64,000 nt of DNA from an uncultured Chloroflexia bacterium (GTDB taxonomy: Bacteria; Chloroflexota; Limnocylindria; QHBO01), in NCBI GenBank assembly GCA_963767985.1, contig CAVYGE010000002.1, positions 169,211 to 233,210 of the forward strand. Reading direction: 5' to 3'. This document shows, piece after piece, positions 3,554 to 35,276 of this stretch. The first letter of the stretch is position 1, and each line of letters begins with the position of its first letter. Both the position numbers and the translations under genes were made by a program. A model generated the notes under the pieces. It searched no databases. It was not told the origin of the DNA and worked only from the letters and a program-made list of their open reading frames with translations.

Positions 3554-3874
3554 ATGCGTGAGATGACGTTCAGCCCGGCGCTCGTCGGCGCCGCCTGTGA
3601 CCTGGGCGAGGCCGACCTTCGCGTCCGGGTCGCCGAATGGAGGTCGCTGCGCGAGCATGCCGCGCACGTCGCGCTCATCGACGACGGCGTCGCCGTCGAG
3701 CTCGCCCCCGACCAGGACGTGCGCGCGGCTGCGGACCTTGCGGCTCGTGAGTCGGATTGCTGCCCGTTCTACGCCATGACCCTGACGATCGCCGGGCCTT
3801 CGCGTCGCCTGGCGATCACCGCCGGGCCGGGCGGCCAACCCGCCGTCCAGGCCCTGCTCGGGATGCTTCAGTAG
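3554..3874 (+). CDS. Small Cys-containing protein (AC-x-L ... E-x-x-CCPF), resembling the C-terminal domain of some MerR-type proteins
   Basis: [17 protein letters not shown]...[10 protein letters not shown]; leaderless TATGCT 6 nt before the ATG. Confidence 0.6.
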
Positions 3875-4534
3875 CGACGCCCCCGCTGGCGGGCCAGGTC
3901 GAACTGTGCGGTGTCGGCGATGGCCATGACGGCCATGGTCCCCGCCTGGACCGGGTCGGACACCACGAGGTCGGCGGCATCCGCGACGGACCCGGCCATG
4001 TTCAGGGCGATGACCGGCACGCCCGTGCTCGCGCAGCTCGCGGACGGCCGTCGTGATCTCGCCGCCCATGATCGCCCCCGCCAGCACCAGGCAGCGGGCG
4101 CGAGGCAGGTCCGCGACCGCCCGCACCGCCGCGGCGATGGCATCCTCGCCCACCAGCGCGATGGTGTCGACGCTGATGCGCTCGCCGCGCAGGTTGTGGC
4201 GATCGGCCTCCGAGACGGCGCCCAGGGCAACCTGCGCGACCTGCGCGCCTCCGCCGATGACGATCACCCGCTTGCCGAAGACGCGGTCGAGGATCCGCGT
4301 CGGCTCCTGGGACTCGATGGCGGCGACTCCGGCCAGCGCGGCCGCGAGGCCGGCCTCGTCCAGCCCGATCACCTCGAGCTCCGCCTCCGCCACCCCGTCG
4401 CTGACCCGCGGCGTCGACAGCGTGCGCAGCGTTCCTCCCGCGGCGGCCACGGCCGACACGATCTGGGCCAGTGAGTCGGGTGCGTCGGTGAACCGAAGCC
4501 GGATGGCGCTCGAGGTGCCCGGGGGACCGGTCAT
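3868..4534 (-). CDS. ACT domain + DUF5612 protein (archaeal AF1403-like); frameshift ~4022
   Basis: [40 protein letters not shown]...[10 protein letters not shown] / [38 protein letters not shown]; ATG directly follows the trpG stop. Confidence 0.8.
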
Positions 4535-25551: not shown

Positions 25552-25695
25552 ATGTCCACTGAGCGCGGCACCGTCGCCGCCGAGTCCACCGTGCGCCCGT
25601 ACCAGGCCGGGCTTCTCGGCGTGCTCGTACTCATCAGCATTCTTCGGCTCGTCATCCTTCTTGGATGGCGGGATGGAGGACGCTCGACCGAGTAG
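25552..25695 (+). CDS. ilvL: ilv/leu attenuator leader peptide (47 aa, LLGVLVLISILRLVILL)
   Basis: Leaderless ATG 6 nt after TGgTAGGGT; dense Leu/Val/Ile run using CTT/GTA/ATT codons; followed by a terminator before ilvB. Confidence 0.85.
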   Translation: MSTERGTVAAESTVRPYQAGLLGVLVLISILRLVILLGWRDGGRSTE

Positions 25696-25726
25696 CCGGA
25701 CAGGCACCCGAAACAGCGAAGCCGCC

Positions 25727-25764
25727 ACCCCGCCAGGCCGAGAGCCAGGCGGGGTTCTTGTTTC
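25727..25764 (+). terminator. ilv attenuator terminator
   Basis: ACCCCGCC-A-GGC-CGAGA-GCC-A-GGCGGGGT followed by TCTTGTTTC; 5' arm is sequestered by the alternative pairing 25666-76/25725-35. Confidence 0.82.
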
Positions 25765-25784: not shown

Positions 25785-27530
25785 ATGACAGCCCTCCCCC
25801 ACCCGTCAGCCCCGCAGCCCCAACGACAGGTCGAGCCCCGCATCGGCGCACGCGCCGTGTGCGAGGGGCTCGTGCGCGAGGGCGTCACGACGATCTTCGG
25901 CTACCCCGGCGGCACCGTCCTGCCGATCTACGACGTGCTGCGCGAGTTCCCCCTGCGCCACATCCTCGTCCGCCACGAGCAGGGCGGCGCGCATGCGGCC
26001 GACGGATTCTCGCGCGCCACCGGCGGCGTGGGCGTGGCGATCGCCACCAGCGGCCCGGGTGCCATCAACCTCGTGACGGGCCTGGCGACGGCCATGATGG
26101 ACAGCGTCCCGATGGTCGCCATCACCGGCAACGTGCCGCGTGCGCTGCTCGGCAAGGACGCATTCCAGGAGACCGATATCGTCGGGATCGCGCTGCCGGT
26201 CACGAAGTTCGCCACGGTCGTCATGGACCCCGACGAGGTCCCGTACGCGGTCGCCGAGGCGTTCGAGATCGCGCGCAGCGGACGGCCGGGGCCGGTCCTG
26301 CTCGACTTCCCGAAGGACGTGCTGCAGGAGGAGACGCGCGTCGCGCACCCAGAGCCATACGAGCTGCGCCTGCCCGGCCTGCTGCGACCTGTCCGCGGCG
26401 ACGTGCCGGAGGCCGATGAGCTGACCGAGATGATCGCCGCGGCCGAGCGACCCCTCATCCTGTCCGGCCACGGCGTGCAGATCGCGAACGCGGTCGACCT
26501 GCTGCGCGAGGTCGCCGAGCGAACCGAGATCCCGGTCGCGCACACGCTGCTGGGCATCGGCAACATCGACGAGACGCATCGGCTCAGCGCGGGCTACGCC
26601 GGCATGCACGGCTGGATGCACGTCAACAAGATGATCCAGCAGTGTGACCTGCTGATCGGGATCGGCTGCCGCTACGACGATCGGATCACCGGCAAGACGA
26701 GCACGTTCGCGCCGAACGCCAAGATCGTGCACGTCGACGTCGACCGGAGCGAGATCGGCAAGAATGTCCGGACCGACCTCGGCATCGTCGCCGATGCGGG
26801 CGATCTGCTCGCCGCGCTCCTGCGGCGCCTGCCGCAGTCCGAGCCGCGCACCGAGTGGATGGCGCAGCTCGCCGCCTGGCGGGAGGTCAGCGAGGCGCGC
26901 TCGTGGCACGGCTCCGGCGCCTGGCGCGAGGGCCGCCTCTCGGCCGACTACGTCGTCGACCAGATCGGCGAGGCCACGGACCACCAGGCGACGCTGGTCA
27001 GCGATGTCGGCCAGAACCAGATGTGGGCCGCGCGCTACTTCGGGTTCCGCAAGCCGTTCCATCACCTGTCGAGCGGTGGCCTCGGCACGATGGGCTACAG
27101 CGTCCCCGCGGCCATGGGCGCCGCACTCGGCGCGCCCGAGCGCGAGACGTGGGCCATCGTCGGCGACGGCGGATTCCAGATGACCATGCAGGAGCTCGCC
27201 ACGCTGGTGCAGGACCAGATCCCGGTGCGGATCGCCGTCCTCAACAACCATCGGCTGGGGATGATCCGGCAGTGGCAGGAGATCATCTACGACGAGAACT
27301 ACCACTCCGCCGAGCTGCTGGGTCCCGACCTCGTCCGCCTGTGCGAGGCATACGGCATCCCCGCCTGGCGCGCGACGCGGCCCGATGAGGTGGCCGGCGT
27401 GATCGCCGAGGCACGCAAGGCGCCGGGGCCGGCGCTCATCGACTTCCATCTCGACGAGGCGCAGAACGTCTACCCGATGATGCTCCCCGGCAAGGGCCTG
27501 TCCGACATGGTCGAAGGCTCATCCGAGTGA
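25785..27530 (+). CDS. ilvB: Acetolactate synthase large subunit
   Basis: [52 protein letters not shown]. Confidence 0.96.
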
Positions 27531-28099
27531 GCGCGATGGCAGCCCGCCAGACCCGACCGGCCGGCGAGGCCGATGCGGTCCACCGCCGGCACGTGGTGAG
27601 CGCGCTCGTCGTGGATCGGCCCGGGACGCTCAACCGCGTCTCCGGGCTGCTCCGTGCGCGGAGCTTCAACATCGAGTCGCTGACGGTCGGCACGACCCAC
27701 GAACCGGGGCGATCGCGCATGACGATCGCCATCCGCGGGGACGACGGCCACCTGCGCCAGGTGCTCGCGCAGCTCGAGCGGCTCATCGAGGTGCTCGATG
27801 TGACGGATCTCACGGTCGCTCCGCACCTCGAGCTGGAGCTCGTGCTCGTCGAGCTCACCCCGCCCCGCGGCACCGCCGACAAGCGCGAGATGGAGGACGT
27901 CCTGGCGTCCGCCGGCGGCGAGATCCTGACCCGCGACGCCGCCGTCTGGCGCGCCCGCCTGACGGCCGAGCCCGAGGCGATCAACCGCGCATTGGAGGCG
28001 CTTCGCAGCCACGGCCTGCGCCGCCTGGTGCGTGCCGGTGCCGTGGCCATGGCGGCGGATTCATCCAGCGACACCGAGAACGGAGCCACATCGGAATGA
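27527..28099 (+). CDS. ilvN: Acetolactate synthase small (ACT) subunit
   Basis: [42 protein letters not shown]. Confidence 0.93.
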
Positions 28100-29161
28100 C
28101 CAAGCTCATCTACGACGCCGACATCGACGCATCGGCGCTCGACGGCCAGACCGTGGCAGTCATCGGCTACGGGAGCCAGGGCGAGGCGCACGCGCGCAAC
28201 CTCGCCGAGTCCGGCGTCGACGTCGTCGTCGGGCTGCGACCCGATTCGGCATCGGCCGAACGGGCGCGCGAGGCGGGACTCGAAGTCACCGACGCGGCCG
28301 AGGCCACGAAGCGCGCGAACGTCGTCATGGTCCTCGTCCCCGATACCGCGGCACCCGGCGTCTATCACGCCGAGATCGAGCCGAACCTCCAGGATGGCGC
28401 GCTGCTGATGTTCGCCCACGGCTTCAACATCCACTTCGGGGAGGTCGACCCGCCCGGCGGCATCGACGTCGGGATGGTGGCCCCGAAGGGCCCGGGCCAC
28501 CTCGTGCGACGGCTGTACGAGGGAGGCGGTGGCGTCCCGGCCCTGTTCGCGGTGCATCGCGAGGCCACCGGCAGCGCGCGCACGCGGACCCTCGCCTACG
28601 CCCGCGGAATCGGCGCCGGGAGGGCCGGCATCCTCGAGACGACCTTCGCGGAAGAGACCGAGACCGACCTGTTCGGTGAGCAGGCCGTGCTGTGCGGCGG
28701 TGTCACGTCGCTCGTCCAGGCGGGATTCGAGACGCTGGTCGACGCCGGCTATCAGCCCGAGCTCGCGTACTTCGAGACCATGCACGAGCTCAAGCTCATC
28801 GTCGATCTCATGTACCAGGGCGGCATGCAGTACATGCGCTACTCGATCAGCGACACCGCCGAGTACGGCGACTACGTCTCGGGGCCGCGCATCGTGAACG
28901 AGGCGACCCGGGCCGAGATGAAGCAGATCCTGACCGAGATCCAGGACGGCAGCTTCGCGAAGCGCTGGATCGAGGAGGGCCGCCGCGGCGCACCCGAGTT
29001 CAAGCGGATGCGGGCCGAGAACGCGGGCTCGCGGCTCGAGGAGGTCGGCGCCGAGCTGCGATCGCACATGGCCTTCATCGGCCCGAAGCAGGCACCCGAC
29101 GGCTGGGCCGAGGGCGGCCGCCGGACGGCCGATACGCCGAGCGGCGAGGGCCAGGAGCTGA
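28096..29161 (+). CDS. ilvC: Ketol-acid reductoisomerase (reads in frame into leuA in this assembly)
   Basis: [65 protein letters not shown]. Confidence 0.95.
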
Positions 29162-30804
29162 TGCCCCGGATCCGCATCTTCGACACCACCCTTCGCGACG
29201 GCGAGCAGACCCCGGGGGCGTCCCTGACCGTCGACGAGAAGGTGACCGTGGCGCGCCAGCTGGCGCGGACCCGGGTCGACGTCATCGAGGCCGGCTTTCC
29301 GGCGGCGTCGCCGGGCGAGGCCGAGGCCGTGCGCCGCATCTCCCAGGAGGTCGGCGCCGCCGACGACGCCCCGGCGATCGCCGCACTGGCGCGCTGCGTG
29401 CCGGCCGACGTGACGGTCGCCGCCGCGGCACTGGAGCCGGCGCGCAGGCGCCAGCTCCACGTCTTCATCGCCACCAGCGACATCCACATCACGCACAAGC
29501 TGCGCACGACCCGCGAGGACGTGCTCGAGCGCATCCGGACCTGCGTGGCACAGGCACGGCGCATGGTCGGGCCCGACCACGACGTCGAGTTCAGCGCCGA
29601 GGACGCGTCGCGGTCGGAGCTGCCGTTCCTGCTCGAGGCGTACGAGGCTGCCGTGGAGGCCGGCGCGACGGTCATCAACGTGCCGGACACCGTCGGCTAC
29701 ACCGAGCCGAAGGAGTTCGCGGCGGTCGTGAAGCAGGTCGTCAAGCTCTGCGGCAAGCGCGCGATCGTGAGCACGCATTGCCACAACGACCTGGGCCTGG
29801 CCACGGCGAACACCCTGGCGGGCATCCAGGCGGGGGCGCGCCAGGTCGAGGTGACCGTTAACGGCCTGGGAGAGCGCGCCGGGAACGCGTCGCTGGAAGA
29901 GGTCGTGATGGCACTCCGCACCCGGCCCGCCCAGTTCCGCTCGGCAACCACCGGCGTCGCCACCGAGCAGCTGACGAGCACGAGCCGCCTGGTGAGCTAT
30001 CTGACGGGCATCGTGGTGCAGCCGAACAAGAGCGTCGTGGGTGCCAATGCCTTCGCGCACGAGTCGGGGATCCACCAGGACGGCTTCCTGAAGAACCCGC
30101 TGACCTACGAGATCATGACCCCCGAGTCGGTCGGCCTGTCCGGCTCGACGCTCACGCTGGGCAAGCTCTCCGGCCGCGCCGGATTCGACGAGCGGCTGCG
30201 GCGCCTGGGGATCCATGTCGAGCCCGAGACACTCGACACCCTCTACGCCGAGGCGATCACGCTCGGCGACCAGAAGAAGCAGGTGACCGATGCGGATCTG
30301 CTGGCGCTGGCCGAACTGCACGCCGATCCGGTGCCGCAGCTCGTGGGGCTCGAGCACTGGGCGGCAGCCAGCCGCCAGGGCGAGTCGAGCTCCGGCAACG
30401 TGTCGCTCTTCTACGAGGGCAAGACGTTCCGCGCCTTCGCCGGCGGCAATGGACCGGTCGACGCGTTGCTGTCGGCGGTGGACAACGCCCTGGAGCAGAT
30501 CATCAGCGGCCGTCCTCAGCTCGTGGACTACCAGCTGCGCTCGGTCGGGTCCGGCGAGGATGCGCAGGGAGAGGCGACGGTCAAGATCTCGGCTCCCGCC
30601 GGCGATGGCGACGTGCCCCAGACCTTCACCGGCCATGGCCTCTCCACCAACGTCGTGGAGGCGTCGCTGCGTGCGTACATCTCCGCCGTCAACAAGCTGA
30701 TCGCGGAGCACCCCGCGGCCGCGGATGCGGTGGCGGCGGCTCGCCAGCGTCGCACCGGTGGCGACCCTGATCCCGTCCCGACCCCCGCCGGAAGCCATCC
30801 ATGA
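29161..30804 (+). CDS. leuA: 2-isopropylmalate synthase
   Basis: [40 protein letters not shown]-terminal GNGPVDA and NVVEAS regulatory domain; own GGAG SD before the ATG. Confidence 0.95.
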
Positions 30805-31903
30805 GGACCCATTCGGTCGCCTATCTGCCCGGCGACGGGATCGGGCCGGAGGTCTGCGCCGCGGCCCGTCGCTGTGTCGACGCGTCCGGCGACGGCGTTC
30901 GGTTTCAACGTCAGCTGGAACGAGCAGAGCGTGGGAGGAACGGCCATCGACGAGTCGGGCCGGGCCCTCCCGCCGACGACGCTCGAGGCGTGCCGATCCG
31001 CCGACGCGATCCTCCTGGGTGCGGTCGGTGGACCGCGCTGGGACGACCCGGCGGCCACGGCCCGGCCGGAGGATGCGCTGCTGGCCCTGCGTTCCGAGCT
31101 CGAGCTGTTCGCCAACCTCCGCCCCGTGACGGCGCACCCGGCGCTCGCCGCGGCCTCGCCCCTGCGTCCCGAGGTGCGCGACGGCGCCGACATCCTCATC
31201 CTGCGCGAGCTCACCGGGGGCCTGTACTTCGGCCGTCCGCAGGGTCGCGAGGAGCACGACGGTGTCGAGTCGGTGGTCGACACCCTGCGCTACACCCGCG
31301 CCGAGATCGAGCGCATCGTCGAGCTGGCATTCGAGCTGGCCGAGGGCCGGCGCGGACACCTGACCAGCGTGGACAAGGCCAACGTGCTGGCCTCGAGCCG
31401 CCTGTGGCGCGAGGTCGTCAACGAGGTTGCCGCCCGCCATCCGGCCGTGACGGTCGAGCACGCCCTCGTCGACTCGACCGCGTATCTCCTGCTGACCCAG
31501 CCGACCCACTACGACGTGATCGTCACCGAGAACCTGTTCGGCGACATCCTGTCGGACGAGGCGGCGGCGATCGCAGGGTCGCTCGGCCTCATGGCGTCGG
31601 CCAGCCTCGGGACGCGCACCACCGCCACGGGACGCATCGGCATGTACGAGCCGGTCCACGGCAGCGCACCGGGCATCGCCGGCCAGGGCGTGGCGAACCC
31701 GCTGGCCACCGTCGCCAGCGCCGCGATGATGCTGCGCCTGAGCCTTGGCGAGGCCGATGCCGCCGACGACCTGGAGTCCGCGGTGACGTGCGGCGATCGA
31801 GGGTGGCCCGCGGACCGCGGACCTCGGCGGGTCGGACGGGACCGCGGCGGTCACGGAGTACCTGCTGGGGCGCATCGGCGCCGGATTGGAAGTGACGGCA
31901 TGA
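30801..31903 (+). CDS. leuB: 3-isopropylmalate dehydrogenase (frameshifts ~30890 and ~31790)
   Basis: [56 protein letters not shown]. Confidence 0.95.
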
Positions 31904-33552
31904 GCGAGCCGATCCTCCTGTATGACACGACCCTGCGTGACGGCACCCAGCGTGAGGGCCTGGTCCTCTCCCTGGCCGACAAGCTGAAGATCGCTCGACG
32001 GCTGGACGAGGCCGGCTTCCCGTACGTCGAGGGCGGCTGGCCCGGCTCGAACCCGAAGGACGAGGAGTTCTTCGCGGCGGCCCGCGGCATGACGTTCCGC
32101 AACGCGAGGCTGTCGGCCTTCGGCTCCACGCGCCATCGGTCGAATCGTGCGGGGGACGATCCGAACCTCCGTGCGCTCATCGAGGCCGAGACGCCGGTGA
32201 CCACCATCTTCGGCAAGAGCTGGCTGCTCCACGTCACCGACGTGCTGGGCGCAACCGCAGAGGAGAACCTGGCGATGGTCGCCGAGTCGGTCGCCTATCT
32301 GCGCGACGCGGGCCGCGAGGTGGTCTACGACGCCGAGCATTTCTTCGACGGCTACAAGGCCGATGCGGCCTACGCCATCGCCACCCTGCGCGCCGCCGTC
32401 GCGGCCGGCGCAACCACGGTGGTGCTGTGCGATACCAACGGCGGCTGCCTCACCGATGAGGTTGCCGCCCTGACGCGGAGCGTGGGGGACGAGTTGGGCA
32501 CCGATGTGACCCTCGGCATCCACGTTCACGACGACGCCGGCCTGGCGGTGGCCAACTCCCTCGCTGCCGTCCAGGCCGGTGCTCGTCACGTCCAGGGAAC
32601 GATCAACGGCTACGGCGAGCGCTGCGGGAACGCGAACCTCGTCACGATCTGGGCCAACCTGGCTCTCAAGCTGGGCCTGCCCACCGTTCCGGCCGGAGAC
32701 GACCTGAGCCACCTGCCCGAGCTGTCGCGGTTCGTGGCGGAGGTCGCGAACATCGCGCCCGACGCGCATCAGCCGTATGTCGGGACGAGCGCCTTCGCGC
32801 ACAAGGGCGGCGTCCACGGAGCGGCCACGGCCCGCGTCGAGCAGGCGTATCAGCACGTGGATCCGGCGATCGTCGGTGGCACCTCGCGCCTGGTGGTCAG
32901 CGAGCTCGGCGGCAAGGCGAACGCCGCCTGGCGCGTCCGCCAGCTCGGCGAGGTCGCATCGGAGGGGCTTGACCCGGCGGAGCTGTCGCGACTCGTGAAA
33001 CAGCTCGAGTCCGAGGGGGCCAGCTTCGAGGGGGCGGACGCTTCGTTCGAGCTCCTCGTCCGGCGACGGCGCAACGACTACGTCGCGCCGTTCCGGATCG
33101 TGGACTTCACCGTCATCGTCGAACGGCGCAACGGCGCCTCCCCGCGCGCCGAGGCCAGCGTCAAGGTCGAGGTGGACGGCGAGGTGCTCCACACCGCGGC
33201 CGATGGCAACGGGCCCGTCAACGCGCTCGACCTGGCGCTGCGCAAGGCGCTCGGCGCCTTCTACCCCGCCCTCGACGAGGTGCATCTCGTCGATTACAAG
33301 GTGCGGATCATCGACGGCGAGGCGGCGACCAAAGCCCGGACGCGCGTGATCATCGAGACCGGCCACGAGACCGGGACGTGGATCACGGCCGGCGCCGAGG
33401 CGAACATCATCGCGGCCAGCCTGGCGGCGCTCCACGACTCGCTGGAGTACGCCATCTGGAAGCTCGACGCGCAGCCGCATCGGCGCGACGAGCGCAGCTC
33501 CTCGGACGCGGCGCTCCGTCGAGATCGGCTGGCAGCCGGGGAGGCATCGTGA
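31900..33552 (+). CDS. cimA: Citramalate synthase
   Basis: YDTTLRDGTQ, YVEGGWPGSNPKD, FGKSW, YDAEHFFDG, LCDTNGG, FAHKGGVH, FEGADASFEL, GNGPVNALD, DYKVRI. Confidence 0.92.
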   Translation: MSEPILLYDTTLRDGTQREGLVLSLADKLKIARRLDEAGFPYVEGGWPGSNPKDEEFFAAARGMTFRNARLSAFGSTRHRSNRAGDDPNLRALIEAETPVTTIFGKSWLLHVTDVLGATAEENLAMVAESVAYLRDAGREVVYDAEHFFDGYKADAAYAIATLRAAVAAGATTVVLCDTNGGCLTDEVAALTRSVGDELGTDVTLGIHVHDDAGLAVANSLAAVQAGARHVQGTINGYGERCGNANLVTIWANLALKLGLPTVPAGDDLSHLPELSRFVAEVANIAPDAHQPYVGTSAFAHKGGVHGAATARVEQAYQHVDPAIVGGTSRLVVSELGGKANAAWRVRQLGEVASEGLDPAELSRLVKQLESEGASFEGADASFELLVRRRRNDYVAPFRIVDFTVIVERRNGASPRAEASVKVEVDGEVLHTAADGNGPVNALDLALRKALGAFYPALDEVHLVDYKVRIIDGEAATKARTRVIIETGHETGTWITAGAEANIIAASLAALHDSLEYAIWKLDAQPHRRDERSSSDAALRRDRLAAGEAS

Positions 33553-34490
33553 CGGCGACCGAGCCGCGACACGCGGCGACAACCTCTGGACTGGGGGCCT
33601 GGGCCTACTTCGAGGGCGCCGTGGTTCCCATCGGCGAGGCGAACGTCAGCATCGCGACCCACACCTTCAATTACGGCACGGCCGTGTTCGAGGGCATTCG
33701 TGCCTATCGGCAGGCCGATGGCAGCAGCGCCGTCCTCTTCGCGCCTGAGCACTACGAGCGTCTCCTGCGCAACGCGCGCCTGATCCGGGCGGCCGTGCCG
33801 GAATCGGCGACCGACCTGGTGGAGATCACCCTCGACCTCCTGCGTCGCAATGCGCACGAGGGCGATGCCTACATCCGGCCGCTGGTCTACAAGTCGGCGC
33901 CGTCGATCCGCGTGCAGCTCAGCGGCATGGAGGATCGGATCGGCATCTTCACCATTCCGCTTGGCGATTACCTGCCGACCGGCGGCATCCGGGTCACCGT
34001 CTCGGGCTGGCAGCGTGTCAGCGACAACGCCATCCCCGCTCGCGGCAAGATCAGCGGCTCGTACGTGAACGCCGCGTTCGCCGCCGAGGACGCTCACGCC
34101 GGCGGCTACGACGACGCGATTCTGCTGACCGGCGACGGGCACGTGGCCGAGGCATCGGCCGCCAACCTGTTCGTGGTGCGCGGCAACGAGATCGCCACGC
34201 CCCCACTGACCGATGACGTCCTGGCCGGCATCACTCGTGCAGCGATCCTGCGCATCGCCGCCGATGCTGGCCACGACGTCGCCGAGCGCCGAATCGACCG
34301 CTCGGAGCTGTACCTGGCGGACGAGATCTTCCTGACCGGGACCGGCGTGCAGGTTGCGCCGATCTCCTCGGTCGACGATCGTCCGGTGGGCACGGGGGAG
34401 TTCCCGACCTCGCTCGACATCCAGCAGCGTTACTTCGCCGCCGTCCGCGGCAGCGATGACCGCTACGCATCCTGGCTCACGCCGATCTGA
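33549..34490 (+). CDS. ilvE: Branched-chain amino acid aminotransferase
   Basis: YGTAVFEGIRAY, YIRP, KISGSYVN, E.SAANLF, LAGITR, DEIFLTGT. Confidence 0.93.
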   Translation: MTATEPRHAATTSGLGAWAYFEGAVVPIGEANVSIATHTFNYGTAVFEGIRAYRQADGSSAVLFAPEHYERLLRNARLIRAAVPESATDLVEITLDLLRRNAHEGDAYIRPLVYKSAPSIRVQLSGMEDRIGIFTIPLGDYLPTGGIRVTVSGWQRVSDNAIPARGKISGSYVNAAFAAEDAHAGGYDDAILLTGDGHVAEASAANLFVVRGNEIATPPLTDDVLAGITRAAILRIAADAGHDVAERRIDRSELYLADEIFLTGTGVQVAPISSVDDRPVGTGEFPTSLDIQQRYFAAVRGSDDRYASWLTPI

Positions 34491-34530
34491 CCGCCGGAGC
34501 GCGGACGACCCAGCAAGGAGACACGACCCG

Positions 34531-35053
34531 ATGACCACTTCCCAGCCTGACGCGAACCCGGGCGCCTCGGACGGCCTGAGCATCGAGCGCTGGTCGGCGA
34601 CCAGCGGCAGCGATCGCGGCAGCCGCGCGTCCCTGGTGCTCCATGGCGGCGGCCACCGCTGGCGCGCCCATGCCGACGGAAACGGCGCGGTCGACGCGCT
34701 GATGCGGGCCGTGGACGATGCGCTGGCCCCGCTGCTCGGGGAGGGCGATCTCCCTCGTCGCCTATGACGTGCACGCCCAGGGCCCCGGCCACGAGACGAA
34801 GGGCTCGGTGACCGTGGCGATCCGGGGCCGCGCGGATGACGACGGCCCGGTCTATCCTGGCGAGTTCGTGAGCGAGAACATCCTCGAGGCGTCGGTGGGC
34901 GCGTACGTGGACGCCGTCAACGCACTGCTGGTCGACACCGGCGTCGACATTGCCGCCGCCGTCCCCGCGCCCGGCAGCACCGACACCCACGAGACCGATC
35001 CCGAGCATCGGACTGGCGCCAAGGACCGGATCATGTCGGCCTACAACAACTGA
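34531..35053 (+). CDS. Stand-alone LeuA-type allosteric (regulatory/dimerisation) domain protein (frameshift ~34745)
   Basis: AAGGAG SD; GNGAVDALMRAVD, LVAYDVHAQG.G...G.VTV, NILEASVGAYVDAVN align with the LeuA C-terminal domain; no catalytic barrel. Confidence 0.78.
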
Positions 35054-35111
35054 GCAGGGCTTTCCGGCGCGCGCCTTGCAAGGAGCAGGGCAGAACGCAG
35101 GAGAGGGTCCG

Positions 35112-35276
35112 ATGACTGATCGCGAACCCGACGCCAGGAGCGTCGACCAGCCGACCGACCGACCCCCGGACGAGGGGAAGACCTACGACCCCGAGATGAC
35201 CGACACGGACGAGGCGAACATCCCGCCGGACTCCGACGCCGATCCTGACAGCGAGGGAGAGACGCACTCCGGCTGA
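35112..35276 (+). CDS. Small acidic low-complexity protein (54 aa)
   Basis: GGAGAGG SD; Asp/Glu/Pro-rich ORF with typical codon usage. Confidence 0.45.
   Translation: MTDREPDARSVDQPTDRPPDEGKTYDPEMTDTDEANIPPDSDADPDSEGETHSG

Follow-up and report, generated by a model that had tools for sequence, protein, structure and literature searches.

Why does an operon for branched-chain amino acid synthesis encode a leucine-sensing domain as a separate gene, when the LeuA and CimA enzymes of the same operon keep their own? We analyzed this gene, referred to below as gene X, within the window (the whole 64,000-nucleotide stretch of DNA under study), where it lies among the following features.

25552–25695, + strand: Ile/Leu/Val-rich leader peptide of an attenuator, 47 amino acids
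25728–25763, + strand: attenuator terminator, a GC hairpin and T run upstream of ilvB
25785–28099, + strand: ilvB and ilvN, acetohydroxyacid synthase (AHAS), named from sequence, ilvN by its ACT match
28096–29160, + strand: ilvC, which shares one continuous reading frame with leuA as assembled here
29161–30804, + strand: leuA (TIGR00973), own regulatory domain intact; parent of gene X
30801–31895, + strand: leuB, frameshifted in this assembly
31900–33552, + strand: cimA (TIGR00977), regulatory domain likewise retained
33549–34490, + strand: ilvE, branched-chain amino acid transaminase
34515–34520, + strand: Shine-Dalgarno site (AAGGAG) of gene X
34531–35053, + strand: gene X, a free-standing LeuA_dimer domain of 173 amino acids, split by one spurious base (from PF08502, relatives and contigs)
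34576–34942, + strand: predicted (beta-beta-beta-alpha)2 LeuA_dimer core, residues 16–137, leucine-pocket positions kept (pLDDT block means 91–98 from residue 21)
34746–34747, + strand: extra base, the assembly error behind the gene X frameshift (from contig comparison)
34994–35050, + strand: conserved acidic tail, residues 155–173, a low-confidence predicted helix ending in Y/F and then mostly N/E/D
35065–35080, + strand: sigma-54-type -24/-12 site, CGGC-N7-TTGCA, belonging to the following unit and marking the operon end in family f1

Within 34531–35053, LeuA_dimer (PF08502) was the only domain encoded. Gene X opens with ATG at 34531 and closes with TGA at 35051–35053, and its two frames matched PF08502 model positions 20–71 and 71–131 at 28.8 and 40 bits, both above the curated cut-off of 24.9; an intact relative reached 76.5 bits (E 2e-21). 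A profile search gave gene X no match to the catalytic HMGL-like model (PF00682) or the accessory model (PF22617), and against the NCBIfam models for IPMS and CMS it scored 51–67, where the cut-offs are at least 450. Read through, with an X placed at the break, the product has 173 amino acids. Genome-wide there were four PF08502 matches, one each in LeuA and CimA and one from either half of gene X; LeuA itself scored 598.9 against TIGR00973 (cut-off 598.7) and CimA 642 against TIGR00977 (cut-off 450). The original prediction had described a gene of ~173 codons with one indel and its own AAGGAG site, devoid of a catalytic domain and resembling the C-terminal domain of the operon's LeuA, next to LeuA and CimA enzymes that retain theirs. 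All of this was recovered, including the three motif pairs quoted for the likeness to LeuA.

The frameshift in gene X is an assembly error. Base 34746 was missing from two closely similar contigs (run X1, record 3, 445 nt with 7 other letters, ~98% alike; run X2, record 12, 369 nt with 17 other letters, ~95% alike), and a third (run X4, record 24) lacked the base at 34747; run X3 had no cover at 34746–34747. Among 14 gene X loci of the genus, 11 were intact (165–174 amino acids), one was cut by a contig end and two were frameshifted. In the best 30 loci, 29 were complete and one was frameshifted near the tail; all 29 complete relatives had the gene's own start, preceded by a Shine-Dalgarno-like site of 4–6 nt, and in these the DRE-TIM barrel and accessory subdomains were missing. 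A real frameshift or pseudogene, which the original prediction had allowed for together with absence or degeneration in relatives, was rejected on the strength of the near-identical contigs without the extra base, the intact and conserved relatives and a dN/dS of 0.29. Elsewhere in the window, ilvD is also broken between frames, and frameshifts seem to affect leuB and leuC as well. Likewise, ilvC and leuA form one open frame at 28096–30804 (902 amino acids, no stop between), which is probably another assembly indel, since relatives have the two genes apart.

We then asked how widely the gene is kept. Its close homologues carry NCBI names from Ca. Limnocylindria, Chloroflexota; 540 protein matches spanned 90–305 amino acids, and the best 120 of the 540 were all 169–174 amino acids long. 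Gene X was present in 31 of 48 genomes of the genus (33 of 50 counting two unpublished ones); five of the 48 had LeuA only, these being fragmented genomes, and 12 had neither. In a survey of 80 genomes of the class, mostly picked for having a PF08502 match, 44 carried gene X (10 in family f1 and 34 in family f3), always together with the operon leuA (44/44); 12 had the operon LeuA without gene X and 24 had neither. The original prediction had proposed searching for LeuA_dimer-only proteins and their synteny. In all 29 loci read, gene X sat within the ilv-leu-cimA operon, the order being cimA-ilvE-X in nine f1 loci and cimA-X in 20 f3 loci, with a cimA-X gap of -4 to 17 nt in all 20 of the latter. 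The nearest clusters in the Atlas were LeuA_dimer-only proteins of 172–187 amino acids, commonest in Chloroflexota. Among 265 Chloroflexota genomes outside the class, 208 had a PF08502 match and four had three; inspection of these four gave no clear stand-alone copy (in two, a match was split within a single frame, in one it lay at the end of a contig, and in the last it was a weak match in an unrelated 212-amino-acid protein), and genomes with one or two matches may still have one. The last of the four comes from another Chloroflexota class (L077, 336–974, - strand; C-terminal PF08502 match, E 1e-5), and the coding region adjoins a gene that by eye resembles a deacetylase.

One lineage, genus g11 (L107–L110 and L065), lacked gene X in all nine operons, the operon leuA in four of nine and cimA in none. 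A TIGR00970-type LeuA was confirmed in one g11 genome and is taken from an extra PF08502 match in the others, as though a replacement were in progress. In family f1 outside the genus of the window, many genomes had no PF08502 match (13 of 50 f1 genomes had one), which suggests widespread loss of leucine synthesis there. Three lineages do without gene X. In the 12 class genomes that have the operon leuA but not gene X, the LeuA domain shows no special acceleration: the tree hinted at a higher rate once gene X had been lost, but the effect was gone after normalization (LeuA domain 1.4–1.6, LeuA catalytic 1.3–1.6).

Where the gene came from is indicated by a tree of the domain core, computed on 35 of the 104 rows of an earlier tree after removal of its CimA, TIGR00970-type, tandem and representative rows. 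In it, gene X formed one clade (98/98) joined to the LeuA domains of the class (97/92); the earlier 104-row tree, built by quick search only, also placed the clade (91) on the LeuA side. Two independent origins were rejected, since forcing the f1 gene X sequences together with f1 LeuA gave a p-AU of 0.0136. Gene X thus has one origin, in a LeuA of the class, predating the split of f1 and f3. It represents an ancient, class-specific copy of the LeuA regulatory domain, now a separate protein.

Purifying selection, for which the original prediction had suggested a dN/dS test, was evident. The median dN/dS was 0.29 (153 pairs from 18 genus sequences; a simple counting method, in which high GC probably depresses dS), falling to 0.04–0.15 in the four closest pairs. 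By part, it rose from 0.17 in the tail through 0.23 in the linker and 0.26 in the core to 0.64 in the N-terminal 15 residues. The rate of change of gene X exceeded that of the fused LeuA domain in its own genomes, with dN of 0.34 versus 0.15 in f1 and 0.26 versus 0.22 in f3.

We next examined whether the detached domain still has the means to sense leucine. Models of gene X predicted six strands and a pair of long helices, all with high pLDDT, and a terminal helix of low confidence. The top ten Foldseek hits were all MtIPMS or LiCMS; MtIPMS 3FIG and LiCMS 3F6H were matched at E ~2e-8, with a TM-score of 0.84 and rmsd of 2.0 on 3F6H. By sequence, a PDB search with a genus-level profile found nothing, and a class-level profile found 3F6G (E 0.0013). 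The available excerpt of PMC2704214 names seven leucine-contact positions in MtIPMS (L535, A536, V551, Y554, A558, A565 and A567), which we mapped to gene X through a TIGR00970-type LeuA. In most of 81 gene X sequences these positions were LeuA-like: I in 45 and V in 36 at L535, D in 72 at A536, L in 80 at V551, Y in 61 and F in 20 at Y554, A in 77 at A558, A in 57 and T in 18 at A565, and A in 49 and G in 31 at A567. The GNG loop was kept as well (G531 in 77, N532 in 73 and G533 in 81 of the 81 sequences). Twelve pocket columns showed stronger conservation than the remaining core columns (entropy 1.05 versus 1.60, permutation p = 0.02, Neff ~11). The original prediction of a branched-chain amino acid (BCAA) sensor therefore appears well founded, since on the aligned residues the leucine-pocket positions stay.

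At two of these positions gene X sides with LeuA: position 558 is I in CimA (38/38) and position 567 is T, and both are small residues in gene X and LeuA. We take positions 558 and 567 to set the choice between leucine and isoleucine. Together, the pocket and the tree point to LeuA over CimA. The pocket has also drifted in places, with P534 replaced by A in 71 of 81 sequences and the E at the D563 equivalent by H or P; the equivalents of P534, D563, Q566, G622 and P625, all invariant in 24 class LeuA sequences, have drifted in gene X. The window's own gene X belongs to a subgroup that has T at position 565, and this subgroup may therefore bind another ligand. Residues W22 and R33 were invariant in gene X, and R21, H43 and W45 nearly so; R21, R33, H43 and W45 differ from LeuA.

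Beyond the domain, gene X has a variable, flexible linker followed by the tail, which is its most constrained region (dN/dS 0.17 versus 0.26 for the core). The tail ends in Y/F followed by N/E/D/Q/P in 80 of 81 sequences, is family-specific (RIMSAYN in f1, DTTDWFN-like in f3) and is missing from LeuA and CimA. Its pLDDT stayed at ~52–55 even with 81 sequences, so that a tail folded onto the monomer is at most a candidate arrangement. A tail that mimics another protein of the genome was considered and rejected, as the tail profile matched gene X alone. The original prediction had mentioned neither the linker and tail nor the BCAA attenuator upstream of ilvB. It had left two options, and the conserved tail favors the second of them, a signal to another partner.

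The transcriptional setting bears on when such a protein would be made. Upstream of ilvB, the leader has 12 Ile/Leu/Val per 14 residues, followed by the hairpin and T run; a similar leader (8–12 per 14) occurred in 18 of 18 operon loci, three of these without gene X, against a background in which 8 was reached by 17 of 500 random windows and 10 by 2 of 500, the hairpins of relatives being judged by eye. The leader and attenuator (25552–25763) had no Rfam or Pfam match, and across the window Rfam gave one tRNA and nothing else. With a BCAA attenuator in this position, transcriptional sensing is already covered. Gene X would presumably be made when branched-chain amino acids are scarce.

No terminator was found 3' of gene X. 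In family f1, its predicted place as the last gene of the operon holds, the next ORF having its own sigma-54-type site: of the 13 loci carrying the next small ORF, 12 had such a site ahead of it (0.04 expected per locus), and the genome encodes RpoN. The site and the ORF after it span window 35065–35276; this ORF encodes an acidic product of 54 amino acids, has no Pfam match and recurs in 12 further genomes of the genus. In most relatives another small acidic ORF (~74 amino acids), missing here, lies between the site and the 54-residue ORF. In family f3, pheA lies downstream of gene X in 18 of 20 loci. The suggested parallel with an orphan ACT protein closing the trp operon holds only loosely, as that gene belongs to a different, known family, DUF5612, and follows trpE-trpG only; trpA is on another contig, and trpE-trpG stand alone here. 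The DUF5612 gene is frameshifted (window 3868–4534, - strand) and lies between trpG and an SRAP gene; its N terminus is ACT-like by eye, with no Pfam ACT match.

Because gene X consists of the leucine-sensing domain alone plus a conserved tail of its own, it is probably a detached feedback sensor. Our main reading, to which we assign a probability of roughly 0.5, is that the protein dimerizes, binds leucine or another BCAA and acts in trans through its tail on a pathway enzyme. The dimer would bind its ligand at the interface, as the parent domain does, and would relay the signal through the linker and the C-terminal aromatic motif, which would dock on the enzyme. It would thereby add a post-translational layer on top of the LeuA and CimA feedback sites and the attenuator. 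The most likely target is LeuA, which gene X always accompanies in the class survey and with whose regulatory domains a complex model, described below, gave a weak pass. In some g11 operons gene X is gone together with the operon leuA and cimA is kept, an observation from one lineage; against LeuA, gene order ties gene X to cimA more than to leuA. LeuA and CimA own complete pockets, and so there is no obvious gap for gene X to fill. Further points against the main reading are the drifted positions around the pocket, the faster change of gene X than of the fused LeuA domain, the low pLDDT and family-specific sequence of the tail, and the dispensability of the gene.

A more ambitious version, which we regard as doubtful, would make gene X the first LeuA_dimer in nature known to work as a freely diffusing leucine signal, the ligand at the dimer interface exposing the C-terminal aromatic motif, which docks on another enzyme (CimA, AHAS, IlvE, LeuB or PheA) and so balances Leu/Ile/Val flux through shared steps.

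It is unlikely that gene X instead pairs with the LeuA regulatory domain, as a mixed dimer or side-on, and, once starvation has switched the operon on, uncouples or retunes the feedback by leucine. Both interface helices are nearly identical in type to those of LeuA. In addition, a complex model of gene X with two competing LeuA regulatory domains scored 0.45 against 0.00 for the best control, a weak pass, although solved look-alike dimers could explain this; of 157 solved complexes 116 reach the complex mark, as do 2 of 215 mismatches, with only 18 of the solved complexes, and both mismatches, at 0.60 or below. Runs agreed in at least 69% of contacts, with a partner pLDDT of at least 72. Gene X distances also tracked the LeuA domain best of eight operon parts (partial r 0.67, against 0.61 for IlvB and -0.45 for the CimA domain), a hint only, as the pairs are non-independent. 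However, the available excerpt of PMC9860122 has the LeuA domains already locked in a domain-swapped dimer, likeness lets close paralogues pass the complex test, and the tail, the most constrained part, would be left unexplained. The heterodimer with LeuA that had originally been put forward is thus compatible with the modeling, which the likeness to solved dimers may account for.

Less probable again is that gene X has given up ligand sensing and instead helps to scaffold, assemble or stabilize the operon enzymes through the tail and the surface formed by R21, R33, H43 and W45. The invariance or near-invariance of W22 and this surface, its departure from LeuA and the drifted pocket loop would fit such a role, but most residues remain at the seven ligand-contact positions and in the GNG loop, with conservation above the core average.

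Lower still we place a leucine sensor whose target lies beyond the leucine branch, either prephenate dehydratase, as a cross-pathway link, or a regulator elsewhere. Leucine activates Bacillus PheA, and the f3 gene order brings pheA next to gene X; however, pheA also follows cimA in operons without gene X, and here it sits in an aro cluster ~17 kb away. Finally, a decaying, functionless partial duplicate of leuA is hardly credible: frameshifts in this assembly, in 2 of 14 genus loci and in 1 of 30 relatives' loci, along with evolution faster than that of LeuA, would suit it, but near-identical contigs lack the frameshift, the low dN/dS speaks for constraint, and two families retain the gene at ~40% identity with fixed synteny.

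Gene X is a genuine new and uncharacterized architecture of a known domain. In the excerpts available from PMC9860122, PMC13381585, PMC10464499, PMC12994207 and PMC2704214, LeuA_dimer always stands within IPMS or CMS or has been cut out artificially. The fused domain is described, in the portions available, as working by limiting the motion of the attached accessory domains. We found no description of a natural stand-alone LeuA_dimer in a literature search of mainly open-access journals; in NCBI the family is automatically named regulatory-domain-containing protein. The retention of a detached copy in two families indicates that the module is useful without its tether to the enzyme, making gene X a test case for an allosteric domain turning into a trans regulator. 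Its reach is limited to one uncultured class, a known fold and a predicted partner. Gene X could also serve as a natural, soluble starting point for building a leucine biosensor, of the kind proposed from the LeuA domain in the available text of PMC13381585, where an isolated CimA domain made into a biosensor binds isoleucine.

Among known systems, the nearest is the LeuA regulatory domain itself (M. tuberculosis 1SR9/3FIG, TIGR00973), with the same fold, GNG loop and leucine contacts, from whose class members gene X derives. In contrast to LeuA, gene X lacks the catalytic barrel and accessory subdomains, has its own gene and Shine-Dalgarno site, carries A for P534 and a drifted EDAQG loop, and has gained the linker and aromatic tail. 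The CimA regulatory domain (Leptospira 3F6G/3F6H, TIGR00977) shares the fold, and in f3 gene X directly follows cimA, but in the tree gene X falls on the LeuA side, and it lacks the bulky residues equivalent to I558 and T567. Three proteins from metagenome data (P0213, P0215 and P0221) carry LeuA_dimer twice in tandem, again with the catalytic domain absent; P0213 and P0221 fall beyond the gene X clade on long branches, lack the tail and probably arose independently. All three could be single-chain sensors or fragments.

Separately encoded regulatory subunits include the beta subunit of aspartate kinase and Thermus SraA. They also include IlvH and IlvN, for AHAS, according to the available excerpt of PMC13381585, and HisZ (PMC9734150). 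All are small amino-acid-binding regulators acting in trans, and by analogy gene X likely works in a similar way. Whereas these regulators have ACT, RAM or synthetase-like folds and known partners, gene X has the LeuA_dimer fold and stands beside enzymes that carry copies of their own.
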